Of a stretch of 46,324 nt of DNA, positions 2,956 to 24,085 are shown one piece after another; position 1 is the stretch's first letter; every line of letters starts with the position of its first letter. The notes beneath the pieces were generated by a model, which worked only from the letters and a program-made list of their open reading frames with translations, searched no databases and was not told where the DNA came from. Location of the stretch: the NCBI GenBank assembly GCA_964484315.1, contig CAZAEF010000001.1, positions 1 to 46,324 of the forward strand, given 5' to 3'. This DNA is from an uncultured Candidatus Saccharibacteria bacterium. Its GTDB lineage: Bacteria > Patescibacteriota > Minisyncoccia > Phycocordibacterales > PALSA-1337. The position numbers were made by a program, and so were the translations under genes.

Positions 2956-3836
2956 ATTCTCTCTAGTTTTTTTGATAAGTCTTTCCTCAAAAAGATATAG
3001 CTGGCGCCCGTGATCTTATTCCTGTCTTTTATTTTCTCAAGAGAAGCGGTATCGGTTATTTCGTATCCATCATAGCCATATTTGTCCATGAGTGCAAAAG
3101 TTTCCAGGAACCGTGGATTTTCCCCACCGCTCCAATATTTAATTATCTCTATGATAAAGCCGATTGGGCGGACCCGTTTTATAAATTGGTCAGCACCTTC
3201 CAGTGCAAAATACTCATTTCCTTCCACGTCGATTTTTATAAAGACAGATGCATTGGTCGGAATCTCATTCGTATAATTATCCAATCTGTCAATATTCACA
3301 GTTATTTTTTCTATGGGAATTTCGTTGTAAGTCCCTCTAACTATTGATCCGCCAGCGTCATTTCCATAGAGGGTCAATGTTTCCTTCTTTATTCCCAAGC
3401 CGACAGGATGGATGACGGTTTTTTTTGCATCGTTTATTCTTAGATTTTTTTCCAGGGATCTTACATTATCTCGTGAAGGTTCAAAGGCGATAATGTTCAT
3501 GTCAGGACGCATCTTGTTCATGAGGCATGAATAATATCCTATATGGGCACCTATATCTATAAAGCAGTCGAAATATGGCATGAGTTTTTTTACGATTGCC
3601 ACCTCGTCAGATTCAAAAGGGCTTTCTACGAACTTTTTCCACGTCCTATGCTTGCGGTATTCATAGCATCCGAGGAGATAGCCCCCGTCCATTTTGACCG
3701 CCATGAACTTATCTGTCTTGAGTTCATCTTTCCTGATCTCATATATCCAATAGAACAATCTGCTGAATGTAGGCTTGGTGTCCAGATAACGTAATAGAGA
3801 TATGAGTCTTTTTTTATTGTAAGAAATAATTCCCAT
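2952..3836 (-). CDS. FkbM family methyltransferase
   Basis: FIDIGAHIGYYS (SAM motif I) and IIAFEPSRDNVRSLEKNL are typical of FkbM-type methyltransferases. Confidence 0.7.
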   Translation of the reverse strand: MGIISYNKKRLISLLRYLDTKPTFSRLFYWIYEIRKDELKTDKFMAVKMDGGYLLGCYEYRKHRTWKKFVESPFESDEVAIVKKLMPYFDCFIDIGAHIGYYSCLMNKMRPDMNIIAFEPSRDNVRSLEKNLRINDAKKTVIHPVGLGIKKETLTLYGNDAGGSIVRGTYNEIPIEKITVNIDRLDNYTNEIPTNASVFIKIDVEGNEYFALEGADQFIKRVRPIGFIIEIIKYWSGGENPRFLETFALMDKYGYDGYEITDTASLEKIKDRNKITGASYIFLRKDLSKKLERI

Positions 3837-3937
3837 ACGTCAGGATGTTATGTGTGAAATCTAGCATATTATATCATTCCTCACAATCAAGTTTTTTCCT
3901 AGACTTCCATAATTTTATGATATAGACTGTATTGGCA

Positions 3938-4756
3938 ATGAAGATAAGACTTCCAAAGATTATAAAGACGCCCACGATTTTTCTTCTCGAGAAGATGGGC
4001 TTCAAGGAGGTCTCCACTGAGGGCATAATTACGACGCTTCAGAATGCCATCTTTACAAAGGTCGGCAGAGAAAATGGACCATCAAGAGAGCTTTGGATCG
4101 AAGAGACCCTTAAAAAGATACCCGCAGGGAAGAGCATATTGGACGCTGGAGCAGGGGAGTTGAAGTATAAAGTATTTTGCAGTCACTTGGATTATACGAG
4201 TCAAGATTTCGGCAAGTATGATGGACATGGCACAGGGGAGGGTATACAAGTCGGAGCCTGGGATAATTCAAAGCTGGATATCGTGTCCGACATCATTAGC
4301 ATTCCGGTTCCGAATAAATCCTTCGATGCAATTCTCTGCATCGAAGTCTTCGAACATATCCCGGAACCCGCTCTCGCCGTAAAGGAGTTCTCGAGAATAG
4401 TCCGTCCAGGAGGAAAGGTTATCATCACGTCGCCATTCTGCTCATTGACCCATTTCGCACCGTTTTATTTTGCAAACGGCTACAGCAAATATTGGTATGA
4501 AAAAGTCCTGACAGAACACGGATTTGAGATCGAAGAAATATTTTTTAACGGAAATTTCTTTAAATATCTCGGTCAGGAGATAAGAAATATCAGAGCAATG
4601 GCGTCGCGCTATTCAGGAACAAATACTAAATGGTGGATCTGTTTCAGGGTAGCCGAGATTGTCATGTTGCAGGCATTATCACGCCTTTCAAAAAAGGACA
4701 AAAGGTCGCAGGAATTATTATGTTTCGGCCTTCATGTCGTCGCGAGAAAAAAATAA
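3938..4756 (+). CDS. Class I SAM-dependent methyltransferase (tandem copy 1)
   Basis: ORF 3932..4756 (TTG 3932, ATG 3938). ILDAGAGELKY (motif I), ILCIEVFEHIPEP and IVRPGGKVIIT. Confidence 0.7.
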   Translation: MKIRLPKIIKTPTIFLLEKMGFKEVSTEGIITTLQNAIFTKVGRENGPSRELWIEETLKKIPAGKSILDAGAGELKYKVFCSHLDYTSQDFGKYDGHGTGEGIQVGAWDNSKLDIVSDIISIPVPNKSFDAILCIEVFEHIPEPALAVKEFSRIVRPGGKVIITSPFCSLTHFAPFYFANGYSKYWYEKVLTEHGFEIEEIFFNGNFFKYLGQEIRNIRAMASRYSGTNTKWWICFRVAEIVMLQALSRLSKKDKRSQELLCFGLHVVARKK

Positions 4757-4778
4757 TAATAATATTATTACATACAAG

Positions 4779-5624
4779 ATGTCATCAAAGATCATACGAG
4801 GAATAAAAAATATCATCATCTTTATTCTCCATGTAATTCTCCCAAAGGATTCATTGGAGGTATTGGATAGGCAGGGAATTGTATCCAGTCTGCGTCACTT
4901 CCGCGACAAAATAACCCTTGCAAATTGGGTAGGACTTCTAAATTACAGGACGAGAGACTTATGGGTGCAAGAAAAACTCAGAGATATACCGAGAGGATTG
5001 TCCGTGCTGGACGCTGGCGCGGGAATACAGATGTATAAAAACTCCTGCAAACATCTCAAATACACCAGTCAGGATTTTGGCGAGTTTACCGGGGCTATGA
5101 CAGAAAGGGACAAGATGACTACTGACGTGCAATACAATACGAAGACGTGCGACATAATCTCTAACATTACAAAGATACCAGTTGCCGATGGATCTTTTGA
5201 TGTAATACTATGCACCGAGGTTTTCGAGCATATTCCTGAACCCGCTCTGGCCGTAAAGGAGTTCTCGAGAATAGTCCGTCCTGGAGGAAAGGTCATCATA
5301 ACGGCGCCATTCTGCTCACTCACGCACCAGTCACCATTTTATTTTGCAAACGGTTACAGTAAGTACTGGTATGAGAAAATCCTCACCGACCACGGATTCA
5401 AGATTCAGGAGATATCCTACAATGGAAATTTTTTCGAATATATGGCGCAAGAGATAAGACGTATTCCCAACGTCAGCAAGCAATATCTCATGAAAAATAC
5501 CGGCATACTGACGAAACTACAGATTTATTTTTTACTTAGAAAGCTTCACAAGTTGTCGGTTAAAGACAAGGAATCCCAGGAACTGCTTTGCTTCGGCCTC
5601 CAGGTAGTAGCAGTAAAGACATAA
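4779..5624 (+). CDS. Class I SAM-dependent methyltransferase (tandem copy 2)
   Basis: ORF 4659..5624. ATG 4779 (MSSKII..) avoids overlap with copy 1. VLDAGAGIQMY, ILCTEVFEHIPEP. The C-terminal half is near-identical to copy 1. Confidence 0.7.
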   Translation: MSSKIIRGIKNIIIFILHVILPKDSLEVLDRQGIVSSLRHFRDKITLANWVGLLNYRTRDLWVQEKLRDIPRGLSVLDAGAGIQMYKNSCKHLKYTSQDFGEFTGAMTERDKMTTDVQYNTKTCDIISNITKIPVADGSFDVILCTEVFEHIPEPALAVKEFSRIVRPGGKVIITAPFCSLTHQSPFYFANGYSKYWYEKILTDHGFKIQEISYNGNFFEYMAQEIRRIPNVSKQYLMKNTGILTKLQIYFLLRKLHKLSVKDKESQELLCFGLQVVAVKT

Positions 5625-6892
5625 TGAAGGACTATATAAAAAAAACAAAGGCCTTTGCCCTATATAAAAAATTTAGGATTCTATATAATAATGCCAAGTA
5701 CGAAATATTTGAGAGTAGGCTGGTATTCAGTTTGTCTTACTTTTATTATAGCATTTCGAACGTTGTCCAAAATACCCTGTATTATGATCGCATAAAATAT
5801 ATTTCGCATAAAGTCAGCCTCAAGGACATAAAGAGTGTAATAATTGTCTATTCTAAACTGCACTTCGATCCGGAAAATGATACACCGGAAAGACCCTTGT
5901 ATTACACAGGTACGGCCAGCGTCACTAGGCAGATATGGAACCTTTTTGAAGGAAAGGAACGTCATTATGTCGATATAAAGACATCGAGTCCTGATACCAT
6001 CCCGAAGGCTGATATTATCATAGGGCTTATGTCAGAAAATTTTAGGACCTGCGCTGAGAAAAATCCCCAGGCAAAAAAAATACTCCTTCTGGTAAATTGC
6101 CATCCATTGTATAGGGCGAGGGTACTCCTGGAGGAATCGAAAAGTCTGAATAAGCGTTTACCTCCGACCGAATGGGTGTCTCCAAAATTATTCTTTAGGG
6201 TAAGAAAATATGCCAATTCCATTGCACTGACCGGAAATGAAGTAATAAAGAACACCTATCTTGATTTCGGCGTCAGGGAAGTCCCGATACATTTATGGAA
6301 TACTGGCATCAATACCGACAGAATTGTGCCAAACCCGGGACTTCGCCCGAAGGACAAGATCAGGTTTGTATACCCGGCAAGTCACAAGGCCATCCGCAAA
6401 GGACTTTTTAGAATGATCAATTCGTGGAAAAAACTAAATACCCTTGTTCCGTCGGAAAGTATAGAATTATATCTGGTGGGCGGTGATGAGCCGTCATTTT
6501 CCAGGGATGTTAGCTCCTTCATTAAGGAATATCCGAATGCATTCAATCTTCCATGGGTTGATACAGACACTCAACTGAAATACTTCCAATCCAGTCACGC
6601 GGTGATAGGTCCCGCAATAGAGGAGGGTCAGGTTACGACCGTACTTGAGGTAATGGCCTGCGGTGCCGTTCCCATTATTACGCCACAGTGCGGCATCAAC
6701 ATCGAGGACGGTACGGAGGGATTCATTATAAAGGATTACAAGGATGCTGATGAAATTGCCATGTATATGGAGAGAATTGTAAAGGACAAAACTCTTCGGG
6801 AGAGAATATCTCTCTTGGCGATATCTAATGTCGTTAGAAATAACGGCTGGGAGGGTTTCCGAGATAATTTCAAGAAGATTATTGAGGAATGA
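5624..6892 (+). CDS. Glycosyltransferase family 1 / GT4-like
   Basis: ATG 5624 overlaps the TAA of the upstream gene (TAATG). C-terminal EEGQVTTVLEVMACGAVPIITPQCG..EDGTEGFII is the GT-B E-x7-E type motif. Confidence 0.7.
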   Translation: MKDYIKKTKAFALYKKFRILYNNAKYEIFESRLVFSLSYFYYSISNVVQNTLYYDRIKYISHKVSLKDIKSVIIVYSKLHFDPENDTPERPLYYTGTASVTRQIWNLFEGKERHYVDIKTSSPDTIPKADIIIGLMSENFRTCAEKNPQAKKILLLVNCHPLYRARVLLEESKSLNKRLPPTEWVSPKLFFRVRKYANSIALTGNEVIKNTYLDFGVREVPIHLWNTGINTDRIVPNPGLRPKDKIRFVYPASHKAIRKGLFRMINSWKKLNTLVPSESIELYLVGGDEPSFSRDVSSFIKEYPNAFNLPWVDTDTQLKYFQSSHAVIGPAIEEGQVTTVLEVMACGAVPIITPQCGINIEDGTEGFIIKDYKDADEIAMYMERIVKDKTLRERISLLAISNVVRNNGWEGFRDNFKKIIEE

Positions 6893-6901
6893 TCGGTAAG
6901 A

Positions 6902-8698
6902 TTATTGTTTTACTGAAAGGATTTTATGAAAGTAAGAATCCTGAGACGAACCAAGTTCTTGTGGCGATCCTGTTTCAGTGACATGGCCATCCTTTAGGAC
7001 AATTAGTCTGTCTGAATTCATTACAGTACTTGGTTTATGAGCAATTATGATTATAGTAACCTTGCCTTTCAGTTCTTCTATATCCTTCTGAATCAAGGTT
7101 TCGGACTCGTTGTCTAGGGCGCTTGTTGCCTCGTCTAGGATAATAATCTTCGGCTTCCTGGCTAGTACCCTGGCAAGGGCGATGCGTTGGCGTTGCCCAC
7201 CGGATATTTCCATTCCTCGTTCTCCGACCTGGGTTTTGAATCCATTCGATTGTGAGATAGCAAAATCATATATATTTGCTATCTTTGCCGCTCCGATCAT
7301 GTCATCATCAGATATTTCTGGATTGTGAAGCTTGATGTTATTTTCAATAGTGTCATTAATGAGAAAGACGTCTTGCGATACATAACCTATGTGATTCCTC
7401 CAAGCACTTTTATCAATAAGACTTACATCTGTACTTCCAATAGAGATATTTCCCTTTGTAGGGTTTATAAGCCGGAGAAGGAGGTCTACTACAGTAGTCT
7501 TTCCAGCTCCTGAAGGGCCTATGATACCCGTGACTGTTCCTGGGGCAATACTGAAAGTCACACCGGAAAGAGTCTTTTTTCCCTCTGAATAGTTGAAATA
7601 CACTTCTTTAAATTCAATAGGTTCATTCCATCTGATATCTTTGGTGCCATCAATTTTCTCTCGATTTTCTTCCGCTTGTTTTTCGTATTCCACTGCTGTG
7701 CGAAGGAAAGGATAAAGGGCATTTATGTTCTGTATGCGCGCTTGGCCATCCTGAACATATGAGAAGAGTTTATTTATTGCGTAGACTATAACGGCAAAGG
7801 AAGCGAAATTAAAAGTTGTCAGTTTGTATGAAAAGGCAAATAATCCTAGGATTAGGAGGACACTCATGGGTTGAGTCACTACATATGTCAAGCTTGAGAG
7901 AACAGAAAGTCTCATGTCTATGCTACGGAGATCCTCAAAGTAAGACTGAACACGATTGGTCACAGCATGTTCTAGGTTCATTGCTTTGATTGTTTTGATA
8001 CCAATCATACTTTCGTTGATGTGCTGAGCTATGCGTTTCAAGATGTCGGCGCTCTGATTAGAGACTATTCGCACCCTATATACCAACGGTTTGAATGTAA
8101 GGAAAAAAATAAGACCTACAGCAATGGTGATGAGGGTGACTTGGGATGAGATAGAAAAGGCGATTGTGGCGTAAATACCAGCATTTATGACGAGTATTAC
8201 ACTACTTGAGATGTAAGAGAGTAGAGCGCTATAAGTGTTGATGTCAGTCATTACCACTTTCTCAAGGTGACCTATTTTCTGTTTTGATAAATATGGCCAA
8301 CTACTCTCAATAGTCATTTTGAAGAGGTGGTCGCGAGTTTTTCGCACATAGTCAGTGCGAATCCTGTCTGTCATATAGTTTGTACAGAATGTCATTATCG
8401 CTTTTCCGATAAATAGAATGGCTATAATTATGAGCAAGTATTTAAGATGGTAGGGTATATGAAGAAATGTAAAGATACTCTGAGTGAATTTAGAGATGGT
8501 ATCAGTAGCCTGGTTCTGGTCTTTCACGACAAAGGAAAAAAGGGGAATGATACTATTGATTCCGATACCTTCGAATATTCCACCAAGAAAGCTAATACCG
8601 ATAAGAGCTATTATTTTATAACGATAAGATCCGAAGGCTTTCCAGAAGACCTTCAGGGTAAATCCTATGCGACTTTCTTTGAATTCTTGTAGTATCAT
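6902..8698 (-). CDS. ABC transporter, fused permease/ATPase (MsbA/PglK-like exporter)
   Basis: Hydrophobic N-terminal half. Walker A GPSGAGKTT, signature ISGGQRQRIALAR, Walker B IIILDEATSALD. Confidence 0.85.
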   Translation of the reverse strand: MILQEFKESRIGFTLKVFWKAFGSYRYKIIALIGISFLGGIFEGIGINSIIPLFSFVVKDQNQATDTISKFTQSIFTFLHIPYHLKYLLIIIAILFIGKAIMTFCTNYMTDRIRTDYVRKTRDHLFKMTIESSWPYLSKQKIGHLEKVVMTDINTYSALLSYISSSVILVINAGIYATIAFSISSQVTLITIAVGLIFFLTFKPLVYRVRIVSNQSADILKRIAQHINESMIGIKTIKAMNLEHAVTNRVQSYFEDLRSIDMRLSVLSSLTYVVTQPMSVLLILGLFAFSYKLTTFNFASFAVIVYAINKLFSYVQDGQARIQNINALYPFLRTAVEYEKQAEENREKIDGTKDIRWNEPIEFKEVYFNYSEGKKTLSGVTFSIAPGTVTGIIGPSGAGKTTVVDLLLRLINPTKGNISIGSTDVSLIDKSAWRNHIGYVSQDVFLINDTIENNIKLHNPEISDDDMIGAAKIANIYDFAISQSNGFKTQVGERGMEISGGQRQRIALARVLARKPKIIILDEATSALDNESETLIQKDIEELKGKVTIIIIAHKPSTVMNSDRLIVLKDGHVTETGSPQELGSSQDSYFHKILSVKQ

Positions 8699-9666
8699 TT
8701 ATAGTTAAAAGTCACCAGAAGATCACGAACAGTCTTTTCCACAGCTGTTTTAGAGGTATATTTTTCTTTCCAACCTACTTGGCGGATTTTAGAACTGTCT
8801 ATACGTACGATTGCAACATCCCCAGGCCAGCCTATTCTTCCTTCGGTATGAGAAATAAGCACTTTATTTAGTGCCATTTCTTTTATAATTATTTCGGCTA
8901 TCTCATTGACAGTAATAAAAGTTGTTGAAGCCAGATTAAAAATATTGATGTTCTCTTTTGTCTTGTTGACAATGATCGAAACCGCCCTTAATACATCAGA
9001 AATATGCACATAGGATTTGCTCTGCAAGCCGTCTCCGAGGATGACGAGCTCATTTGGATTTCTCCTAAGCCGACCTATGAAATCAAAGATCACTCCATGT
9101 GTGGCTCTGTCTCCGATGATGTTTGCTGGTCGCAGGATCCATGATTGTATTCCAAAGAGGTGAGAAAAAGCAGAGATGAGTCCTTCTGCAGAAAGTTTTG
9201 ACGCTCCATACATTGAAATTGGAAAAAGAGGACCAAGGTCTTCTCGAGAGTATGTATTACCAAGATCGCCATAGACTCCACTACCAGAAAAGTATACCAG
9301 ACTTTTAACCTCTTTTGCCTTCATTATCTGGAGAAGGTTGAAAGTTGCGATGATAGTTTGGTTGAAATCGAGGGTTGGATCTTTGATTCCTTTTGAAATA
9401 TCTGGGTTAGCTGCGAGATGGATGACGAGATCTGTATTTTTCGGCAATGCTCCAGCGATACTATTTTTATCAAGCAAGTCTCCTTTTATCAGTTTTAGAT
9501 TCTTGCTGGACAATGATTTTTTTAAGAATAACTTCTCTCCAGATGAGAGATTATCGAACACCACTACCATCCTTCCATCGGCAATAAGTTCATCAACTAT
9601 ATGACTTCCGATAAAACCGGCTCCTCCCGTAACGAATATTTTACGGTATTCTTTAGGTATGAACAT
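8695..9666 (-). CDS. NAD-dependent epimerase/dehydratase (extended SDR)
   Basis: VTGGAGFIGSHIVDEL and YGASK catalytic motif. The ORF is open to TTG 9702, but ATG 9666 (MFIPKEY..) or ATG 9690 avoids a divergent overlap with the next gene. Stop overlaps the ABC start (ATGA). Confidence 0.8.
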   Translation of the reverse strand: MFIPKEYRKIFVTGGAGFIGSHIVDELIADGRMVVVFDNLSSGEKLFLKKSLSSKNLKLIKGDLLDKNSIAGALPKNTDLVIHLAANPDISKGIKDPTLDFNQTIIATFNLLQIMKAKEVKSLVYFSGSGVYGDLGNTYSREDLGPLFPISMYGASKLSAEGLISAFSHLFGIQSWILRPANIIGDRATHGVIFDFIGRLRRNPNELVILGDGLQSKSYVHISDVLRAVSIIVNKTKENINIFNLASTTFITVNEIAEIIIKEMALNKVLISHTEGRIGWPGDVAIVRIDSSKIRQVGWKEKYTSKTAVEKTVRDLLVTFNYK

Positions 9667-9719
9667 AAGTTTATTTTTATCACCTATCATGACTATTGTC
9701 AAACTTTTTTAAAAAGAGT

Positions 9720-10763
9720 ATGATGCTCTGCATGGGCAAAAATATTGAAGAAAAAAAATCACACTCCTTACGTGAAAGAGCTGTTATAATCACCCAGACT
9801 CCAATGAGAATTGCCTTGGCTGGTGGAGGAACCGATGTAAGTTGGTATAGTAATAAAAGAGGCGGGGCATGGGTAAGTGCTTGCATAAACCGTTATCTAA
9901 TAGTCACCTTAACAATGACTGAAGATCCTGATTTTATAGGGTACTCATACGGAGAGGAGGCATATCAGGGAAATTCCCACAAATTAATTCCACCTTATAT
10001 AAAGGCATGTCTTGAACATGCAGGTGTTCTCAAGGGTGTTAGTGTATGCATCACTTCGGAAGTATCAGGAAAGTCTGGTCTAGGTGGATCTGCTGCTCTG
10101 GAGGTAGGTCTTCTAAATGCCCTCTATTGCTACAAAAAGGAGTCTGTCTCGAGACTTCTTCTGGCCAAGAAGGCTTTCAAGATCGAGAGTGTAAAATTGA
10201 AGCGCGATTATATAGGGCCTCATGATCAGTATATCGTCTCTCTTGGGGGGATAAATTATTTTGAACGAGATATAAAAGGAAATGTCACTGTAGAACCACT
10301 ACCCCTTTCTTTGCATACGATTTCCGAATTGGAATCAAACCTCCTTTATTTTAGGACAGGCATATACAGGGATGCTGGTGTAGCCTTGGCTGATCAAAAG
10401 AATAAGATGAGCAAAAATCATTTCAAGGCCCTCGATGATATAAAAAGGTTGGGTCAGAAGGCAAAGAAGTACCTACTCGAAGGAGATGTCGATAGATTTG
10501 GCGCCACATTCCATGAACACTGGAAGATAAAAAAGACACTATCGGATAAAGTATCGAATCCTCAAATAGACGCATGGTATGATGAAGCCATGAAGATGGG
10601 GGCTTCCGGCGGTAAAATAATGGGGGCCGGCGGAGGAGGATGGTTTGTCTTCTATGTCAAGAATGACAAACTTGCCTTCAGAAAGAGGATGAAGGAGATA
10701 GGTCTTGAGGAAAAAAAAGTCAAGTTCGATTTTGAAGGGACAAAGACGCTTATTAATTTTTAA
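9720..10763 (+). CDS. hddA: GHMP-family sugar kinase, D-glycero-D-manno-heptose 7-phosphate kinase-like
   Basis: PMRIALAGGGTDVSWY and GHMP motif SGKSGLGGSAALEV. ORF open from TTG 9696; ATGs at 9720/9723/9732. Adjacent to gmhA. Confidence 0.65.
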   Translation: MMLCMGKNIEEKKSHSLRERAVIITQTPMRIALAGGGTDVSWYSNKRGGAWVSACINRYLIVTLTMTEDPDFIGYSYGEEAYQGNSHKLIPPYIKACLEHAGVLKGVSVCITSEVSGKSGLGGSAALEVGLLNALYCYKKESVSRLLLAKKAFKIESVKLKRDYIGPHDQYIVSLGGINYFERDIKGNVTVEPLPLSLHTISELESNLLYFRTGIYRDAGVALADQKNKMSKNHFKALDDIKRLGQKAKKYLLEGDVDRFGATFHEHWKIKKTLSDKVSNPQIDAWYDEAMKMGASGGKIMGAGGGGWFVFYVKNDKLAFRKRMKEIGLEEKKVKFDFEGTKTLINF

Positions 10764-10766
10764 AAT

Positions 10767-11357
10767 ATGAAAAAAGAAACTATAAACTATACAGATACAT
10801 ACCTTACAGCCTCGAGAGAGCTGATGACAAAGATAGACCGAAGAGAGATAGAATCAGTGCTCAATCTCTTTATCAAACTCAAGAAAAACGGAGGACGACT
10901 TTTTCTCTTGGGTATCGGTGGTTCGGCCGCAAACTGTTCCCATGCCGTCAATGATTTCCGTAAGATTTGTGGCATAGAGACGTATGCACCTACCGATAAT
11001 GTATCAGAGCTTACGGCCCGTGCCAATGATGACGGCTGGGATACCATATTTGAAAAATGGCTTGAGGTCAGTAGGCTTGCAAAAAATGATATGATTATGG
11101 TTTTTTCTGTCGGTGGTGGAAATGTGGAAAAAAATATAAGCACCAACATAGTCAAGGCTCTAGATTTTGCAAAAAAGACTAAAAGTCCTATAGTCGGAAT
11201 TGTCAGTAGAGACGGTGGACATACTAGGAAAGTTGCGACAGCATCGATCATCCTCCCTATTTCCAATCCAGATCTTATAACCCCCTTAGCCGAGAGTTTT
11301 CAAGCTGTTCTCTGGCACCTCATTGCCACGCATCCTAAACTAAAAAAAGAATATTAA
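10767..11357 (+). CDS. gmhA: SIS-domain phosphoheptose (sedoheptulose-7-phosphate) isomerase
   Basis: LLGIGGSAANCSHAVNDF and VFSVGGG SIS-domain signatures. Size of 196 aa is typical for GmhA. Confidence 0.75.
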   Translation: MKKETINYTDTYLTASRELMTKIDRREIESVLNLFIKLKKNGGRLFLLGIGGSAANCSHAVNDFRKICGIETYAPTDNVSELTARANDDGWDTIFEKWLEVSRLAKNDMIMVFSVGGGNVEKNISTNIVKALDFAKKTKSPIVGIVSRDGGHTRKVATASIILPISNPDLITPLAESFQAVLWHLIATHPKLKKEY

Positions 11358-12086
11358 TCAGCCAATTCTTTTTATTTTTTTGAATTCCATTCTAGCTTTA
11401 TCTAAGTTTTCGTTCGTACCTATATCGATGAAATATCCATCAAAAGGAAAGACCATAACTTTTTTATTAGCTTTTATCATCGAAGGGAATACATGACGTG
11501 CAAAATCTATCTGGCCCGATAGAGAGATAAAATCAAATACTTCTGGTTCGAGTATGTAGAATGATCCATTTGACCATTGGAAGCAATCTTCTAGTTTTTG
11601 GGATTTTTCCAATTCAGTGAATTTTTTTATAATATTTTTATCATCAAATTCCAAAACACTCTTGAAATTATTTCCAGTATGTCTGTAGGCATTAATCGTC
11701 GCTATTGCTCCAGCACTTATATGTCTATCAATCATTGTTGTAATATCCAATTCTCGAAGGATGTCAGCGTATGTTACGATGAATGTATTGTCTATATACT
11801 TGCGTGCATGGAGGATTGCTCCGGCTGTGCCAAGGGGATTAGAAGAATCTTCGAATGTGTAGGTAATGTGTACGCCGAATTTTGTTCCATCTCCGAAATA
11901 GTCTTGTATAACCTCTGGAAGATAACATAGAGCCAGAATAATATCCTTTATTCCGTGATGTCTGAACATTTCTATTGTATGTTCAAGAAGAGACTTACCA
12001 GCTACTTCTATCATTGGTTTAGGAATTGTATCTGTGATAGGACGGAGACGCTCTCCTCGACCACCCGCTATTATAATAGCTTTCAT
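11358..12086 (-). CDS. hddC: Sugar-1-phosphate nucleotidyltransferase, heptose-1-phosphate guanylyl/adenylyltransferase-like
   Basis: MKAIIIAGGRGERLRPITDTIPKPM N-terminal NTP-transferase motif. Coupled (ATGA) to gmhB. Its stop abuts the gmhA stop with 0 nt spacer. Confidence 0.65.
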   Translation of the reverse strand: MKAIIIAGGRGERLRPITDTIPKPMIEVAGKSLLEHTIEMFRHHGIKDIILALCYLPEVIQDYFGDGTKFGVHITYTFEDSSNPLGTAGAILHARKYIDNTFIVTYADILRELDITTMIDRHISAGAIATINAYRHTGNNFKSVLEFDDKNIIKKFTELEKSQKLEDCFQWSNGSFYILEPEVFDFISLSGQIDFARHVFPSMIKANKKVMVFPFDGYFIDIGTNENLDKARMEFKKIKRIG

Positions 12087-12655
12087 AAGAATAACTTGAT
12101 TAATACAGGAATGACTTCATGGTGATTGTACACCCTAAAATCGGCTTTATATTTCCGGTTTAATTCGACCTTGTAGGAGACATCATTTTCATGGAAGTAA
12201 TGAATAGTTTTTACTCCAACTTTCATTCCCGCTTCCATATCACTTGTGTTGTCACCTAGGATTGCACTATTTAATAAATCAATATCTAGATCTTCAACTG
12301 CTTGAAGTAATAGTCCGGGATTAGGTTTTCTACAGTAGCAGTTTTCCTTAGAATCATGGAAACATCTGTAGGTTTTATCAATGCAGACTTTTTTTTCTTT
12401 GAGTAGATCGTGGACTCTTTTTTCTATGGCTTCAAGTGTCTCCATATTCATTTTTCCCTTTGCAACTCCAGGTTGGTTGGAAATCTCTATGACAGATATT
12501 TTATTTTTATTAAGCCAGCCAATCACTTCAGATATTCCAGGGACTAATTCTACCTCACGAGTATTCTGTGGCGAGTCGAAGACACCTGACTTTTGAAGGA
12601 CCATCTTGTTGATTATTCCATCGCGATCCAAAAATAAAACTTTCTTGCCAATCAT
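12083..12655 (-). CDS. gmhB: D,D-heptose 1,7-bisphosphate phosphatase (HAD-IIIA)
   Basis: FLDRDGIIN (DxD nucleophile) plus the Zn-finger-like C-x-H-x6-C-x-C-RKP string (YRCFHDSKENCYCRKPNPG) characteristic of GmhB. Confidence 0.8.
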   Translation of the reverse strand: MIGKKVLFLDRDGIINKMVLQKSGVFDSPQNTREVELVPGISEVIGWLNKNKISVIEISNQPGVAKGKMNMETLEAIEKRVHDLLKEKKVCIDKTYRCFHDSKENCYCRKPNPGLLLQAVEDLDIDLLNSAILGDNTSDMEAGMKVGVKTIHYFHENDVSYKVELNRKYKADFRVYNHHEVIPVLIKLFL

Positions 12656-18425: not shown

Positions 18426-20927
18426 ATGGCGTTTATATTGAAGAATATCTTCGGAGATCCCAACAAGAAAGCCCTCAAGACCTATGCGCCTATCGTAGCG
18501 AAGGTCAACGCTTTCGAATCTGCTATTTCTGCATTGTCAGACGAAGCTCTCAAAGCGAAGACCCCTGAGTTCCGAGCTCGTCTAGCAAAAGGCGAGACTA
18601 TCGATGCTATCCTGCCCGAAGCTTTTGCTGTTGTGCGTGAAGCTTCTAGGAGAACTCTCGGACAGAGACATTTCGATGTACAGCTCATCGGAGGAGCGAT
18701 CTTACATAATGGAAATATTGCCGAGATGCGTACAGGTGAAGGTAAGACTCTCGTGGCAACACTTCCTGCATATCTCAATGCTCTTGGCGAACAAGGAGTA
18801 GGAAAAGGGGTGCATATAATCACGGTGAATGACTATCTCTCACGTCGTGATGCAGTATGGATGGGTCAGATCTACTCAGCTCTGGGACTGTCAGTAGGGG
18901 TGATCAATTATGAGTCTTCATTTATATACGATCCTGCTCATACGGACAAAGACAAGGAGCTTGATAAGAAGCGTGATGACACTGGAGCTTTCCATGTCGT
19001 CCACGAATTCCTCCGACCAGTCTCTCGTCGTGAAGCATATGCAACAGATATTACCTATGGTACGAACAATGAATTCGGTTTCGATTATCTCCGTGACAAT
19101 CTCGAATACGAAGAAAGCAATCTTCGTCAGAGAGAGTTCAATTATGCCATCGTGGATGAGATCGATTCTATCCTCATAGATGAAGCTCGCACACCACTCA
19201 TTATTTCTTCACCGACTACAGATTCGGAGAATCTCTATCAAGTATTTTCTAGTATTGCAAATGACTTATCTGAGACAGTCGACTATACCAAGGATGAGAA
19301 ACATAAGTCCATTGCCCTCACGCCAGCAGGAATAGAAAAAGTGGAGAAAAAACTTGGCATTGGAAATATCTATACAGAAAAAGGAATAAAATATGTGCAT
19401 CACCTCGAGACGGCTGTGCGAGCCAAGGCACTTTTCCATCTCAATAAAGAATATGTGGTCAAGGAGGATCAGATCGTCATTGTCGATGAATTTACCGGAC
19501 GACTCCAACCAGGACGCCGTTGGTCAGAAGGTCTTCATCAGGCTATCGAAGCCAAGGAAGGTGTGACAGTGCAGAAAGAATCTCGCACATTTGCCTCGAT
19601 CACATTTCAGAATTATTTCCGTCTCTACAAGAAACTTTCTGGTATGACTGGTACAGCCGCCACATCGAGTGAGGAATTCTACAAAGTCTATGGTCTAGAC
19701 ACTATCATCGTTCCTACGAATAAAAATATCACTCGCAAGGATCATAACGACTTCATCTTTCAGACAGAGCTTGGAAAATTCAAGGCTATTGCTCGCAAGG
19801 TCAAGGAACTCAATCAGAAAGGTCAGCCAGTGCTTGTTGGTACAGTATCGATAGAGAAGAACGAAGTGCTTTCACAATTCCTAAAGGCTGAAGGCGTTCC
19901 ACATGAAGTCCTCAATGCAAAGAATCATGAAAGAGAAGGAGAAATAATCGCGCAAGCGGGTAAAAAGGGAGGTGTTACTATAGCTACGAACATGGCTGGT
20001 CGCGGAGTGGATATCAAGCTCGGAGGAAATCCTGGGAGCGTGGGTATGTACGAAGAAGTGAAATCTGTCGGTGGTCTCTTCGTCCTCGGTACAGAGAGAC
20101 ATGAAGCGAGACGCATCGACAATCAGCTCCGTGGACGATCTGGAAGACAGGGCGATCCGGGAGAGACACAGTTCTTCATCTCACTAGAAGATTCTCTCAT
20201 GCGAGTATTCGCAAGTGATACCGTGAAGAATCTCATGGGCAAGCTCGGCGTGCGTGATGATGAGGCGATCGAGAATCGTATTATTACGAAATCTCTCGAG
20301 AGTGCACAGTCGAAAATCGAGGGGTTCAATTTTGACTCTCGCAAGCATATCCTCGAATATGATGATATTCTCAATCATCAGCGCAAGACTATATATGAGC
20401 GTCGCAGAGCTATTCTCATAGGGGATTATGATATGGTTGAAACGCGGTTCATGGAAGTTGTCGGTGACAATACTGATCTCAAGAAAGTAATAGAAGAGAA
20501 GATCACTCTCATGGGTCGTGAGCGATTCCTCCAGACTGCGCGTCAGCTCATGCTCCAAGCTATCGATATGTTCTGGGTTGAACATCTCGAGGTCATGGAC
20601 TATACGCGTTCGAGTGTGAATCTCCGTGCATATGGTCAGCGCGATCCTCTAGTCGAGTACAAGAGAGAGGGACTAAGACTTTTCAAGGAAATGCAATCCG
20701 CCATCGATACTCAGATTATAAATCTCATACCTCATATGGGTGCAGGTATGGCCAATCCAGAAGCGGTGCAATTGCAAGAAGTGCATGATCAAGCTCAAGA
20801 AATAGGTAGTGGGGATGGCAATGCAAATATTCAAAATCAATCCGTATTGAAAAAATCAGAAGTTGGAAGAAATGAACTTTGTCCATGCGGAAGTGGCAAG
20901 AAGTATAAGAAATGTCATGGGAAGTAG
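18426..20927 (+). CDS. secA: Preprotein translocase ATPase SecA
   Basis: MRTGEGKTLVATLPAYLNAL, DEIDSILIDEARTPLIIS, TNMAGRGVDIKLGG and the C-terminal zinc motif CPCGSGKKYKKCHG. Confidence 0.95.
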   Translation: MAFILKNIFGDPNKKALKTYAPIVAKVNAFESAISALSDEALKAKTPEFRARLAKGETIDAILPEAFAVVREASRRTLGQRHFDVQLIGGAILHNGNIAEMRTGEGKTLVATLPAYLNALGEQGVGKGVHIITVNDYLSRRDAVWMGQIYSALGLSVGVINYESSFIYDPAHTDKDKELDKKRDDTGAFHVVHEFLRPVSRREAYATDITYGTNNEFGFDYLRDNLEYEESNLRQREFNYAIVDEIDSILIDEARTPLIISSPTTDSENLYQVFSSIANDLSETVDYTKDEKHKSIALTPAGIEKVEKKLGIGNIYTEKGIKYVHHLETAVRAKALFHLNKEYVVKEDQIVIVDEFTGRLQPGRRWSEGLHQAIEAKEGVTVQKESRTFASITFQNYFRLYKKLSGMTGTAATSSEEFYKVYGLDTIIVPTNKNITRKDHNDFIFQTELGKFKAIARKVKELNQKGQPVLVGTVSIEKNEVLSQFLKAEGVPHEVLNAKNHEREGEIIAQAGKKGGVTIATNMAGRGVDIKLGGNPGSVGMYEEVKSVGGLFVLGTERHEARRIDNQLRGRSGRQGDPGETQFFISLEDSLMRVFASDTVKNLMGKLGVRDDEAIENRIITKSLESAQSKIEGFNFDSRKHILEYDDILNHQRKTIYERRRAILIGDYDMVETRFMEVVGDNTDLKKVIEEKITLMGRERFLQTARQLMLQAIDMFWVEHLEVMDYTRSSVNLRAYGQRDPLVEYKREGLRLFKEMQSAIDTQIINLIPHMGAGMANPEAVQLQEVHDQAQEIGSGDGNANIQNQSVLKKSEVGRNELCPCGSGKKYKKCHGK

Positions 20928-20951
20928 GATATCAGTATACACATATTCAAT

Positions 20952-22346
20952 ATGAGCCCTACCATATTTATCATCTTCGGAATCACAGGTGACCTTTCTC
21001 TCCGCAAGCTTCTTCCGTCTCTCCTTAACCTCTATGTGAACAAGCGTCTTCCAGAAAAATTCGCTATTGTCGGTTTTTCTCGTCGTACATTCACCCGCGA
21101 GGAATTTCGTGAATACATCCGCGAACACATGAAGGTAAGATCTGGTGAATATCACGAAGAAGATATAAAGCACTTCATTGATCATATGTATTATGAACAA
21201 GGATTCTTCGACATAGGAGCTTCGTATGCGAACCTTGCCATGAGACTGAAGATTATCGACGATGGTTTCCATCAATGTTCGAACAAACTCTTTCATCTAG
21301 CCGTCGCCCCATCATTCTATGAGACAATACTCGAACATCTCTCTAATTCTGGATTGACCATACCTTGTGGAGGAAATGAAGGCTGGACTCGTGTACTCGT
21401 GGAGAAACCTTTCGGTCATGATATAGAGACAGCGCGCAAGCTCGATAAGAGACTGGGACAACTCTTCGATGAAGAGCAGATATTCCGCATCGATCATTAT
21501 CTCGCAAAGGAAGCTTTGCAGAATATCATGGCGTTTCGATTTACCAATACAATATTCGAACCGCTATGGAGTGGAGAACATATAGAAGCTGTTCATATCA
21601 AGCTTCTAGAAAAGAATGGTATAGAAGGTCGTGGTGGATTCTATGATGATATAGGAGCTTTGAAGGATGTCGGACAGAATCATATACTTCAGATGCTTGC
21701 TCTTGTAGCTATGGAACCACCAGAAAGTTTCGATGCTATATCTATAAGAAAGCAACGGGCCAAACTCATCAGCAAATTAAAACTTATGACGGCGAAAAAT
21801 GTCGGTGATTATGTCATACGAGGACAATATGAAGGATATGCGAATGAAAAGGGGGTCAAGAGGAATAGCAGAACAGAAACATACTTCCGTGTTGAAGCGC
21901 ATATTGATTCTCCTCGTTGGAAGAATGTACCTTTCTATCTAGAAAGTGGCAAGGCTCTTTCTGAATCGAAATCAGAAATTGATGTATATTTTAAAAATGA
22001 AAAATCAAAGATTCACGGGGGGATGCCGGATCTTTCGCAGAATATTCTCACATTTCGCATACAGCCAGACGAGGGTATCAAGATTCGCTTCTTCGTGAAG
22101 ACTCCTGGTTTCGATATGAAAGTGGCGCCGAAAACGCTCAAGTTCAAGTACAGCGACAGTCCAACATTTCAGGAATTACCTGATGCTTATGAGAGAGTCC
22201 TCTACGACGCTATCATGGGGGATCAAACTCTCTTCACGAGTACAGAGGAAGTTCTCCAAGCATGGAAATATATAACTTCAATTGTGCAATCTTGGAGTTC
22301 ATTGCCACTCATGACTTATAAAAAGGGTTCGGATACTGTGATATAA
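20952..22346 (+). CDS. zwf: Glucose-6-phosphate 1-dehydrogenase
   Basis: IFGITGDLSLRKLLPSL, EKPFGHD, RIDHYLAKE. Confidence 0.9.
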   Translation: MSPTIFIIFGITGDLSLRKLLPSLLNLYVNKRLPEKFAIVGFSRRTFTREEFREYIREHMKVRSGEYHEEDIKHFIDHMYYEQGFFDIGASYANLAMRLKIIDDGFHQCSNKLFHLAVAPSFYETILEHLSNSGLTIPCGGNEGWTRVLVEKPFGHDIETARKLDKRLGQLFDEEQIFRIDHYLAKEALQNIMAFRFTNTIFEPLWSGEHIEAVHIKLLEKNGIEGRGGFYDDIGALKDVGQNHILQMLALVAMEPPESFDAISIRKQRAKLISKLKLMTAKNVGDYVIRGQYEGYANEKGVKRNSRTETYFRVEAHIDSPRWKNVPFYLESGKALSESKSEIDVYFKNEKSKIHGGMPDLSQNILTFRIQPDEGIKIRFFVKTPGFDMKVAPKTLKFKYSDSPTFQELPDAYERVLYDAIMGDQTLFTSTEEVLQAWKYITSIVQSWSSLPLMTYKKGSDTVI

Positions 22347-23086: not shown

Positions 23087-23135
23087 GGAATAAGCGGGAG
23101 GTTTTATAAATTATATACATAAGGTCAGATACATA

Positions 23136-23164
23136 TTGCATTATTTACTTCATCATGATAATCT
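23136..23164 (+). promoter_or_regulatory. Promoter TTGCAT-17-TAATCT with TG extension
   Basis: -35 at 23136-41, TG at 23156-57, -10 at 23159-64. Confidence 0.5.
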
Positions 23165-23170
23165 ATTGCA

Positions 23171-23455
23171 CAGACCATGAAAAATATGGATCCTCTGCAA
23201 CGCTTCAAAGCGTGTTGGTATGTAGAAGTCACATTCCTTGGCGCCACAGTGTCCTATGAATTCATCAAGGAAGTAGCGGAGGTTCTCAGCTTTGCAGTAC
23301 ATCAGGTGGTGTCTCGGTGCAATCGAAAGTTTGATACCGCCCCCTGCAACAGGACGTACACAGGCCTTAAGGACCTGTGAGAACCTTGTTTCCCCGATTA
23401 ACTAAACTCAAAAGTGAAGACCGTCGCGTGTACGCGTGGCGGTCTTTCTATTTTA
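23171..23455 (+). ncRNA. Candidate structured RNA, unit A (family not recognised; overlaps a 67-aa ORF 23177..23380)
   Basis: Bounded by a promoter and a terminator. Nested helices 23281-88/23378-85, 23292-97/23344-49, 23305-13/23333-41 and 23361-66/23371-77, plus two 5' hairpins. Confidence 0.45.
23418..23454 (+). terminator. Intrinsic terminator of unit A
   Basis: AGACCG/CGGTCT outer stem and CGCG-TGTA-CGCG inner stem (23418-45), then TTTCTATTTT. Confidence 0.65.
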
Positions 23456-23483
23456 GGTATTTTATAAGGGGATACGAGTGGTA

Positions 23484-23544
23484 TTGACAGACTTATACGA
23501 GTGTGCTAGCTTGTTTGACAGATAGCAATCTGTATTGTTATTTA
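23484..23544 (+). promoter_or_regulatory. Two tandem TTGACA promoters
   Basis: TTGACA 23484-89 -17- TAGCTT 23507-12. TTGACA 23515-20 -18- TATTTA 23539-44 with TG at 23536-37. ATACGAGTG (23472-80, 23495-503) and TTGACAGA (23484-91, 23515-22) are each duplicated. Confidence 0.45.
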
Positions 23545-23550
23545 GCCATA

Positions 23551-24085
23551 ACATAAATAAAATGGCTCTTTGTAATAAATAAACCAAACAGGTATAAACG
23601 CCTTGGGGAAACCCTAAAGACGAAGGATACGTACAATGAAACTGTTACGATTCACCCTGGTCGCGCTTTCGCCTGGCCTTCTCTTGAACCCTGCGACTCC
23701 GGAACTCCTGGATACGTTGCGGACCAAGAAGCCGGTGCAAAAACGTACCGATTGGACCGTTGAAGCCGAAGCTGGCACGAGGCTCTACCGTTCGGAAGAA
23801 GGCAAAATGGGCCTCCTGGCAAGTCCCGTCCGCTACCGTCGGGTAGAGTCTGGAGCAACAAGAATTTTTCTTGTCGCTATACTATCAGGCCCAGTGTTGT
23901 CCCGCAGTCTAGCGTCCGTCAGTGTAAACTAATGCCAAGTCTTGTCCGTCACACCGTTCCAATGAGCGTGAGGTATTTATCTTTCGCTTTCTCAATTGCC
24001 GTGCCGCAGCGTGCCGTTCAGTGCTCTGTAGTAAAGCGTGGTTCGGAGCGGTTGATCGTAATAGATCAACCGCTTCTTCTTTTTA
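23551..24085 (+). ncRNA. Candidate large structured RNA, unit B (family not recognised; overlaps a 98-aa ORF 23636..23932). The 5' end is approximate
   Basis: GC-rich core of 55-60% G+C by hand count in 23641-23820, against 25% just upstream. Multiple nested helices. Strong terminator at the 3' end. Confidence 0.45.
24047..24085 (+). terminator. Intrinsic terminator of unit B
   Basis: An 11-bp stem AGCGGTTGATC / GATCAACCGCT (24047-57 / 24064-74), loop GTAATA, then TCTTCTTTTTATTT. Confidence 0.8.

Follow-up and report, generated by a model that had tools for sequence, protein, structure and literature searches.

A GC-rich intergenic unit in a Patescibacteria contig, probably a decayed VIPR locus

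What is the GC-rich, helix-rich unit at positions 23484-24085 of this 46,324-nt stretch of DNA (hereafter, the window)? The initial annotation took it for a single structured orphan non-coding RNA (ncRNA) of ~0.5 kb, with three-way junctions and twin promoters. Its GC counts are right (35, 33 and 36 G+C per 60 nt in 23641-23820 and 15 in 23521-23580), and the 300-nt bin 23701-24000 is the GC maximum of the window (0.527 versus a mean of 0.41). It also stands as a single discrete unit: the promoter upstream of it is real and conserved in relatives, and a real terminator hairpin closes it. Nevertheless, the unit is a relic of an already known system, not a new large RNA. On the homology, truncation, module architecture and conserved promoter and leader that we observe, it is very probably a decayed VIPR locus belonging to a Patescibacteria-specific clade. 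The surviving VIPR parts are the promoter, a structured leader, the first 60 vipr codons and three guide-RNA modules:

23484..23512, forward strand: promoter P1 (TGCTAGCTT), TTGACA, 17 nt, TAGCTT, with TG two bases 5' of the -10 box; conserved upstream of vipr, presumably active
23513..23635, forward strand: conserved structured 5' leader of vipr (alignment A4, RNAalifold, model R2)
23636..23815, forward strand: vipr pseudogene remnant, codons 1-60 of Vipr, a Cas7-like RAMP (phmmer, tblastn, hmmsearch)
23822..23880, forward strand: vrRNA module 1, 5'-truncated, six 5-nt repeats plus tail hairpin (model R1, 36.4 bits, E 1.9e-11, model positions 28-89 of 89)
23886..23988, forward strand: vrRNA module 2, degenerate (R1, 9.8 bits, E 0.059, tract only, tail unaligned)
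23988..24085, forward strand: vrRNA module 3, intact, ~10 G-Y-N-N-N repeats, tail and T-run (R1, 48.2 bits, E 1.2e-15, full model 1-89)

According to two preprints, VIPR (Viral Interference Programmable Repeat) is a recently described CRISPR-like RNA-guided DNA-silencing system made up of a Vipr protein and a vrRNA, with seven types; the characterised examples, of type II, come from Escherichia phage SUSP1 and from a prophage of Pseudomonas fulva (bioRxiv 10.64898/2026.04.26.720920, 10.64898/2026.04.26.720927). They describe Vipr protomers of type II that polymerise along the repeats, holding the conserved bases and presenting the variable ones, which read double-stranded DNA in a gapped code; the system silences competing mobile elements or, with an enzyme (vap), attacks them. 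The repeats are given there as YNNGG or the variants NNNGG, YNNNG and NNNNG, with a threshold of at least four and typically 9-16. As the system was described in these 2026 preprints, the novelty of the unit is undercut.

We found 25 related loci, hosted by Patescibacteria MAGs; a single locus can hold as many as ~20 modules, and ~100 modules were collected in all. The intact cassettes run in the order promoter (TTGACA and an extended -10 box), leader, vipr, ~94-nt vrRNA modules, DinG-like helicase (vap), more modules and a 221-aa protein. A module is a run of about eleven 5-nt repeats, in each of which G-Y is conserved and three bases vary, and it ends in a GGAGC-stem-loop-stem-GCU tail.

The vipr remnant

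The GC island had been read as structured RNA, but 23636-23815 is protein-coding sequence that matches positions 19-80 of 267 of the family profile (E 1.6e-17), the sole match in the six-frame window. The vipr genes of relatives have 0.52-0.60 GC and their flanks 0.41-0.50, so the gene explains the island. A profile of 94 family members matches PDB 36pp_D, "SUSP1 Vipr protein" (E 2e-14, 160 residues), placing both in a homologous family with a Cas7-like RAMP fold. Full-length members match phrog_4652 (E 1e-9 to 1e-20), and the AF2 model of the full-length relative P0002 (pLDDT 90.8) matches Csm3/Cas7 folds. The predicted assignment to VIPR draws on this sequence and fold homology to SUSP1 Vipr and on the repeat architecture.

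What the window carries is a remnant of a vipr gene rather than a vipr gene, since the RRM core, thumb and glycine-rich loop are not all encoded. About 75% of the gene is missing (the family measures ~200-260 aa, ~230 aa in intact cassettes), and none of the window's six frames encodes the thumb or the C-terminal GLGDFRPxxxGxFGRF loop. We rejected a frameshift: the rest of vipr lies in no other frame of the window, and the gene has therefore been deleted. A weak tblastn match of the query P0018 at 6164-6502 was also discarded, being unconfirmed by the profile search. Pfam and PADLOC searches of the ORFs returned nothing for the RAMP, phage records had no DNA similarity to the unit, and the viral-contig search with the relative P0001 gave no match.

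The open frame continues through vrRNA sequence to 23932, producing the 98-aa ORF (23636-23932, AAGGA 8 nt upstream) that the initial annotation had listed and doubted. The ORF exists and the doubt was justified, and its GC3 is indeed deviant (0.56 versus 0.36-0.43 in neighbouring genes), but codons 1-60 have clear protein homologs, which the annotation itself had named as evidence against an RNA; the gene behind them is a truncated remnant, not a secreted protein. Could the ORF nevertheless be a functional small protein, acquired horizontally, for example with the N-terminal part of Vipr serving as a dominant-negative or an anti-VIPR decoy? The good SD, the open frame and the conservation of residues 1-60 (91% identical to P0001 and 72% to P0002) would suit such a role. 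However, the coding sequence of residues 61-98, which have no homolog, consists of vrRNA repeats and the module 1 tail, no gene caller reports the product in any assembly, and by the AF2 model of P0002 the fragment would lack most of the RRM core. Other vipr copies are broken too, at different points (P0001, which ends at 82 aa, P0003 and L022), which looks like random decay. We therefore consider a functional small protein very improbable, and return to a decayed VIPR locus.

The vrRNA modules

The 3' half of the unit (about 23820-24076) is non-coding RNA, as had been proposed, and both a PWM and the covariance model R1, trained on relatives only, identify it as guide-type. R1 found nothing in the window besides the three modules, which are spaced by 111 and 82 nt (82-128 nt in relatives) and carry six, ~12 and ~10 pentanucleotide repeats with conserved and hypervariable positions. 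Module 1 has the repeats caaGT cccGT ccgCT accGT cggGT agaGT from 23820, followed by an intact tail, GGAGCAACAAGAA-uuu-UUCUUGUCGCUAU (23852-23880). In module 2, ~12 repeats run in register (23886-23947) before the last three fall out of it, and the tail is mutated (UGAGCGUGAGG-uauuuau-CUUUCGCU, 23963-23988; GGAG to UGAG); its repeat-tract PWM scores 18.1 bits at anchor 23948 and -0.3 at the tail anchor 23963. Module 3 (to 24076 in a narrower delimitation) reaches 27.8 bits by PWM, close to the training median of 30.1 and against a window 99.9th percentile of -4.7, and is 80% identical to the terminal module of locus L017. Its tail, GGAGCGGUUGAUC-guaaua-GAUCAACCGCU (24045-24074), doubles as the intrinsic terminator. 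The 11-bp stem of the initial annotation is perfect (24047-57/24064-74, plus the T-run), and was found by the terminator scan; ychF starts 32 nt downstream of the hairpin. The GGAGC-stem-loop-stem-GCU structure is thus intact in modules 1 and 3 and mutated in module 2.

The 5-nt periodic G-Y logo was obtained from 67 filtered units and again from 47 unfiltered hairpin-anchored units in independent GTDB loci, 46 of which are on the vipr strand. What recurs as an element is the hairpin, with a stem sequence that differs between units: the AGC/GCU base is invariant in relatives, and compensatory changes occur at 7/7 variable pairs, in units that were selected for the hairpin. The motifs GGATACGT, GTCCGTCA, AGCGTG and GTGC all recur where they had been reported, although it is the 5-nt tandem repeat that generates both their recurrence and the 10-nt period of GTGC. 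Likewise, all the helices listed earlier are complementary, and 23855-64/23868-77 and 24047-74 are the vrRNA tail and the tail/terminator, respectively, but the comparison with relatives lends no support to the three-way junctions.

One large helix-rich orphan ncRNA would fit the folding z-score of -3.0, the real promoter and terminator and the lack of any assigned Rfam family, both at gathering threshold and in permissive mode. With Rfam 15 at gathering threshold there were no matches in the window or in 17 related loci, only sub-threshold ones (e.g., Xoo2, 24-30 bits versus 45), and the tRNA/tmRNA scan found none. However, folding is just as favourable on the opposite strand (z -3.3), so that folding energy alone decides neither strand nor reading. 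The GC-rich 180 nt, the vipr N-terminus, are homologous to a protein N-terminus in more than 100 diverged sequences with the same Met start, the remainder consists of independent ~90-nt modules of variable copy number in relatives, and the long-range helices have no counterpart, the corresponding sequence in relatives being the full gene. We give the large-RNA model almost no credence.

Like SUSP1 VIPR, then, the clade has a gene flanked by ~90-100-nt RNA arrays of 9-16 pentanucleotide repeats with an invariant structured tail, and a DNA-acting accessory gene adjoins vipr in relatives. Here, in contrast, vipr is cut to 60 codons and there is no accessory gene: the DinG-like helicases and 221-aa proteins of relatives, used as tblastn queries, found nothing in the window. 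The SUSP1 repeat is GGY-NN and this one G-Y-N-N-N (the "YNNNG" alternative of the preprint); the SUSP1 tail is a pseudoknot and that of the clade just a simple GGAGC...GCU hairpin, whose stem varies; SUSP1 has vrRNA upstream of vipr where the clade has a conserved structured leader; and the host is a phage in one case and Patescibacteria chromosomes in the other. Class 1 CRISPR-Cas, including type IV-A, is also comparable in that a RAMP bearing a G-rich loop would form polymers along a hairpin-capped guide RNA. The Vipr fold matches Csm3, type VII Cas7 and Csf2, and the best PADLOC match of the relatives' helicase is type IV DinG (typeIV_DinG, E 1e-37 to 1e-39), DinG being the helicase (Csf4) of type IV-A. 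Unlike these systems, the loci of this clade lack identical direct repeats with unique spacers, Cas1/Cas2 and Cas5/Cas8/Cas6, and the RAMP has no PADLOC match. A CRISPR guide is a contiguous spacer, whereas the vrRNA information is interleaved in 5-nt units. No array of 23-50-nt near-identical repeats with unique spacers of similar length appeared in the repeat search, which gave only 8-17-nt matches in two copies.

By analogy with SUSP1, the modules would bind Vipr and recognise DNA through their variable bases. The G-Y-N-N-N repeat is not the GGY/NN one that has been characterised, and any reading rule for it is putative. With an NNx code, target prediction for module 3 gave no matches with 20 specified bases and 18 with 16, in unrelated ORFs, i.e., these searches were negative or at chance level; the TFTA[D/E]ALA motif common to the 16-base matches was imposed by the search pattern itself.

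Promoter and structured leader

Both TTGACA boxes of the proposed twin promoters are present (23484-89, 17 nt, TAGCTT; 23515-20, 18 nt, TATTTA), and a generic sigma-70 scan listed neither because their -10 boxes are weak. The first, P1, is conserved: a TTGACA-N17-TG(C/T)TA(A/G/T)(C/G/T)TT box is found at an equal distance 5' of vipr in L007-L013 and L019-L023, and its position and sequence are kept in at least 12 related loci. The second falls within the leader, where it belongs to a conserved hairpin region; as a promoter it lacks conservation. The partial duplication noticed around them is real, with ATACGAGTG and TTGACAGA in two copies each here and none elsewhere in the window.

The leader (~125 nt here, ~125-150 nt in intact relatives) contains the hairpins P1 (23524-29/23535-40), P3 (AGGU/GCCU, 23591-94/23601-04) and P4 (GGGG/CCCU region, ~23606-16), as well as an invariant block, AACCAnAnAGGnAnAAnGCCU, which is followed by CUAAAG and by the SD AAGGA (23623-27). 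In alignment A4 (RNAalifold and pair counts), 97.9% of the cells are paired, with compensatory changes at 7/14 pairs; none of 500 shuffles was as high, and slid controls gave 32-54%. With model R2, each locus, non-training ones included, yields exactly one copy, immediately 5' of vipr; the window leader scores 82.3 bits. The leader matches no Rfam family in the window or related loci, nor is it mentioned in the text of the VIPR discovery preprint. Two candidate features were rejected: a riboswitch-like CUCUUUG/CAAAGAG pairing, which had no compensatory support (by eye, A4), and a leader peptide from the AUG in GAUGGCAAC, which is not conserved (AUA in the window).

This leader RNA is the most interesting by-product of the analysis, a testable regulatory element upstream of vipr. 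Vipr dosage could be under its control, with Vipr itself or the helicase as a conceivable autoregulator. We tentatively keep in view, as possible but doubtful, that it represents a new class of cis-regulatory RNA, or that the locus has been kept as a source of trans-acting orphan vrRNA or as a decoy versus incoming VIPR-bearing elements.

Decay of the locus and its relatives

An internal deletion joined vipr codon 60 to the middle of a tract of vrRNA repeats; the RRM core was largely lost with it, as were the thumb and the G-loop. The conserved promoter probably still drives transcription of the remnant, giving an RNA that comprises the leader, the 98-codon junk ORF and the three modules and would end at the module 3 hairpin and T-run. 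The arrangement is identical in four independent assemblies and is therefore no assembly artefact. The unit does not differ between four strain contigs, and in a fifth comparison 79/79 SNPs fall in secA/zwf; as the absence of SNPs extends over 6 kb of flanks too, it carries no information on selection. The preceding unit A (23087-23483) was rejected as part of the cassette, having no similarity to any VIPR locus; its ORF67 has no homolog.

As no Vipr is encoded at the locus, the relic is most likely non-functional. An intact vipr may exist elsewhere in the genome, of which only 46 kb are visible, and modules 1 and 3 might then be expressed and loaded by a Vipr supplied from there or by an infecting element, as orphan CRISPR arrays are in trans. 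The intact promoter, leader and SD agree with such an active orphan guide array, as do module 3, scoring at the family median, and module 1, with its intact tail and six repeats (four being the detection threshold in the preprint). The SNP-free strain contigs could be cited as well, were they not silent on selection, and so could the P0001 contig, from a different sample, where a DinG-like gene adjoins a 91%-identical vipr N-terminus. However, that copy is itself truncated (82 aa), in module 2 the tail is mutated and the register broken, there is no vipr or helicase within 46 kb, and the target searches found none. We regard an active array as unlikely, and a decayed VIPR locus as the better description. 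The unit resembles orphan or degenerate CRISPR arrays with cas pseudogenes in having a guide-RNA array beside a broken effector gene and a degenerate terminal unit, but it belongs to VIPR.

As a stand-alone finding, the direct importance of this relic is modest. It also serves as a practical warning for annotation: what looks in a CPR/Patescibacteria genome like an intergenic RNA island, rich in GC and helices, can be a VIPR cassette or what is left of one. Decay of vipr with persistence of the arrays has happened repeatedly (this window, L022, P0001 and P0003), and orphan CRISPR arrays show a similar pattern of an array outlasting its effector. The clade extends VIPR, so far characterised in phages of Proteobacteria, to the chromosomes of Patescibacteria, with a DinG-like helicase, G-Y-N-N-N vrRNAs and simple hairpin tails as its traits, and the mechanism described for SUSP1 would presumably apply to it.

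A truncated vipr gene in the GC island

At 300-nt bins, the GC maximum of the 46-kb window is located at 23701-24000 (0.527, versus a mean of 0.41), within the putative transcription unit at 23484-24085 on the forward strand. The initial annotation had described this unit as a candidate large orphan ncRNA, and its primary observations were reproduced: 35, 33 and 36 G+C per 60 nt in 23641-23820 versus 15 in 23521-23580, the spacers of two TTGACA boxes, a partial duplication with two copies each of ATACGAGTG and TTGACAGA, the complementarity of all the hairpins, the recurrence of short motifs (GTGC at 24001, 24011 and 24021), a terminator with a perfect 11-bp stem and T-run at 24047-74, and a 98-aa ORF with AAGGA 8 nt 5' of its start and a GC3 of 0.56 (0.36-0.43 in neighbouring genes). 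Rfam gave no match at the gathering threshold in any part of the window, and permissive mode added no credible one. Scans for tRNA and tmRNA genes came back empty, and a generic promoter scan listed neither TTGACA promoter. Predicted folding was ca. 3 SD better than that of shuffles on both strands and thus does not discriminate.

The claim of an orphan ncRNA did not hold, since the GC island is a fragment of vipr, the gene of a Cas7-like RAMP protein of the CRISPR-like VIPR systems, and the 3' half consists of three modules of its guide RNA (vrRNA). Searched against 5.8 billion proteins, the 98-aa product had one match, P0001 (82 aa, in another gene neighbourhood), whose 91% identity is confined to the query's first 54%. 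An exhaustive HMMER search with P0001 retrieved 103 cluster representatives, nearly all of 190-300 aa, which matched it by their N-termini. In the alignment, the start Met is common to the window ORF and full-length members (MKLLRFT... versus MKLIRFT... in P0002), and conserved residues are kept through Gly56-Met-Gly-Leu, beyond which similarity is wholly lost. By tblastn with all family members, homology to close relatives ends at 23815, and no trace of the other ca. 170 codons was found in any frame of the window. The ORF, set aside previously in favour of an RNA, thus has protein homologs for its N-terminal part, and across all six translated frames of the window the profile HMM matched this one alone (E 1.6e-17, over positions 19-80 of its 267). 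With the missing codons absent from every frame and the match stopping at position 80, vipr was truncated by a deletion and not by a frameshift. Codon 60 joins the repeat tract at 23816-23819. The identical arrangement in four independent metagenome assemblies rules out an assembly chimera.

Neither Pfam nor PADLOC recognised the family, and PHROGs places full-length members in phrog_4652, with function unassigned there. The sequence evidence identifies it as Vipr: a 94-member profile has a single PDB match, 36pp "SUSP1 Vipr protein" (E 2e-14, ca. 160 residues). The AlphaFold2 model of P0002 (mean pLDDT 90.8) matches Csm3, Cas7 and Csf2 of type III, VII and IV CRISPR complexes. According to this model, the surviving peptide would retain of the RAMP fold only beta1, alpha1, alpha2 and the beginning of beta2, without the thumb and the G-loop, given in the published accounts as the guide-RNA-binding parts of RAMPs, so that this locus cannot yield a Vipr. 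Among all relatives, G+C is 0.52-0.60 in vipr, 0.45-0.53 in the arrays and 0.41-0.50 in flanking genes. Since vipr is GC-rich there too, the island represents the native composition of the cassette, which accounts for the GC3-rich ORF that had seemed odd.

Strain contigs had no SNPs within the unit, which is uninformative on selection. One of them, L004 (ENA ERZ27247837), differs from the window at 79 positions, all of which (window 18473-21017) fall within secA or the initial 66 bases of zwf; the next 6 kb have none. Such a pattern would fit either a recombination tract or an assembly of mixed strains. The region just before the unit, 23087-23483 (presumably "Unit A" of the initial annotation; GC 0.44-0.52), contains a 67-aa ORF (23177-23380) that gene callers predict in every assembly, followed by a strong 14-bp terminator (23416-23447). 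We found no homolog of this ORF besides itself, and no similarity of the region to VIPR loci at the DNA or protein level.

vrRNA modules and the intact cassette of relatives

VIPR systems were defined in two 2026 preprints (bioRxiv 10.64898/2026.04.26.720920 and 10.64898/2026.04.26.720927). As described there, a locus combines Vipr, a minimal RAMP protein, with an accessory gene (vap; nuclease or helicase in types III-V) and vrRNAs of ca. 100 nt, with 9-16 pentanucleotide repeats (conserved GGY and hypervariable NN; other consensus forms are NNNGG, YNNNG and NNNNG) followed by an invariant structured tail. As it polymerises along the repeats, Vipr exposes the NN bases; these read dsDNA with every third base skipped, and competing phages are silenced.

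We compared 17 loci from metagenomes and 9 from GTDB genomes (Ca. Taylorbacteria, Doudnabacteria, "Saccharibacteria"-labelled and other Patescibacteria MAGs). Their full-length vipr sits in ordinary chromosomal neighbourhoods (gyrB, mnmA, yceG, sigma factor) and has 3' of it a helicase of ca. 610-640 aa that matches PADLOC type IV-A DinG end to end (E 1e-37 to 1e-39), often together with a conserved 221-aa protein. Module arrays fill the long "intergenic" stretches that separate these genes. Anchored on the hairpin start GGAGC, 67/75 periodicity-filtered units have one register in common, and 46/47 hairpin-anchored units of the nine GTDB loci, taken without that filter, are on the vipr strand. 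Upstream of the anchor, the GTDB units have G at -4, -9, ... -49 (frequency 0.66-0.91) and a pyrimidine at -3, -8, ... -48 (0.94-1.0), with three unconstrained bases between, which indicates a module of ca. eleven G-Y-N-N-N repeats followed by GGAGC-stem-loop-stem-GCU. In the tail stem, the AGC/GCU base is invariant and 7/7 inner pairs covary, in units pre-selected for having the hairpin. Median module spacing is 94 nt, and the array-final module has a GC-rich stem and T-run, so it serves as terminator. The clade (chromosomal in Patescibacteria, DinG-like vap, G-Y-N-N-N repeats, hairpin tails) agrees with what the preprints say of helicase-bearing types that have the alternative YNNNG repeats.

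Locus L009 has a very large vrRNA set (2971-5063, 7092-7643 and 8508-8595; ca. 19 modules passing selection) and L029 ca. 11 (6704-12440), in both cases before and after the helicase and 221-aa gene and all on the vipr strand. L017 carries two tandem vipr paralogues (90-796 and 1670-2236). Each of these has a separate vrRNA array after it; the second has a TTGACA promoter of its own and is without the long leader. PemK/MazF-type toxin genes are found beside vipr in L019 (9025-9408 and 10958-11189) and L021 (10958-11368), in the latter between vipr and the helicase. The giant proteins P0028 (2272 aa), P0080 (1423 aa) and P0100 (1239 aa), with 4-6 separate Vipr-like stretches each, are concatenated RAMP-like domains. 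The first post-vipr module has a distinct tail (UGAGCGGCGGGUG...CCGCCGCU and T-run), and in five loci it matches Rfam Xoo2 (RF02241) below threshold, at 24-30 bits where the gathering score is 45; the tail/terminator hairpin accounts for the match.

Xoo2-like first modules
L007, 1005-1072
L011, 3162-3247
L013, 1198-1268
L015, 814-898
L017, 811-932

A weight matrix of the repeat tract was scanned on both strands of the whole window (background mean -44 bits, 99.9th percentile -4.7). The best site is anchored at 24045 (27.8 bits; training median, 30.1), a second cluster lies at 23928-23948, and nothing outside the unit exceeds 5.2 bits. The covariance model R1, built from 89 modules of relatives only and searched with filters off, recovered three modules and no other site in the window, save the palindromic reverse strands of these same hairpins.

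R1 matches in the window (forward strand)
Module 1, 23822-23880: 36.4 bits, E 1.9e-11, model positions 28-89; first ca. five repeats absent
Module 2, 23891-23948: 9.8 bits, E 0.059, repeat tract only; tail unrecognised
Module 3, 23988-24076: 48.2 bits, E 1.2e-15, full model

Read in register, module 1 is caaGT cccGT ccgCT accGT cggGT agaGT ct, then GGAGC.... Module 2 has twelve repeats, then three out of register, and the GGAG of its tail is mutated to UGAG. In module 3, ca. ten clean repeats precede GGAGCGGUUGAUC...GAUCAACCGCU, and the T-run follows. The recurring motifs noticed initially (GTCCGTCA 30 nt apart, AGCGTG, GTGC every 10 nt) are real but by-products of the 5-nt repeat, and helix 23855-64/23868-77 is the tail hairpin of module 1. 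No DinG-like or 221-aa gene is present in the window, and ychF starts 32 nt 3' of the terminator hairpin.

Promoter and leader RNA

Sequences upstream of vipr in relatives can be aligned to the window all the way from the -35 box through the start codon, and at least 12 loci have TTGACA-N17-TG(C/T)TAnnnT in the same position. This backs the first of the two proposed promoters (TTGACA 23484-89). The second is matched in the alignment by non-promoter leader sequence (TTAGCAGAUGGCAAC...) and shows no conservation as a promoter. The leader between promoter and start codon (125-155 nt; 23513-23635 in the window) has a nucleotide identity of 81-88%, versus 67-72% for the coding sequence. It contains a covarying hairpin P1, an invariant block AACCAnAnAGGnAnAAnGCCU folding as hairpin P3 and a strongly covarying hairpin P4, then CUAAAG and the SD. 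Its pairing holds in 97.9% of cells, with compensatory changes in 7/14 pairs; 0/500 shuffles scored as high, and slid controls gave 32-54%. The leader model R2 locates a single copy in each locus, immediately 5' of vipr, also in loci outside its training (L028, L029, L031, L026, L024), and scores the window copy at 82.3 bits. We infer that the leader regulates vipr expression. No Rfam family matches it and the text of the discovery preprint says nothing of a leader or UTR element for vipr, which makes this RNA the sole element for which these two sources gave no prior description. A weak extra R2 match in L031 (3414-3555; 21.8 bits, E 0.006) overlaps the start of the DinG-like helicase ORF (3462-5309) and hints at a possible related leader for the accessory gene.

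Present state of the unit

The unit descends from a VIPR locus and resembles one in working. Of the defining features, it retains the vrRNA repeat architecture and structured tail and, as it stands, has neither an intact Vipr nor an adjacent vap; it is a decayed member of the kind described in 2026, not a new RNA class. Since its promoter, leader, SD and module 3 seem to be intact, transcription of the unit probably continues. With lower probability, module 3 may serve in trans as a guide for a Vipr whose gene lies beyond the 46-kb window. In target searches by the published NN-skip logic, the 20-base pattern of module 3 had 0 matches in a viral collection, and the 16-base pattern had 18, in unrelated ORFs, nothing beyond chance. 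Most likely, the unit is a non-functional relic, because module 2 is degenerate, module 1 is truncated, the helicase is absent and in some other relatives vipr has been truncated independently. In L022, a vipr copy (2567-2881) is broken after residue ca. 91; P0001 ends at 82 aa, and 2 kb downstream of it lies a DinG-like gene; and P0003 is a Vipr N-terminus fused to an ABC-ATPase-like C-terminus. Decay or rearrangement of vipr thus seems to be frequent in this clade.
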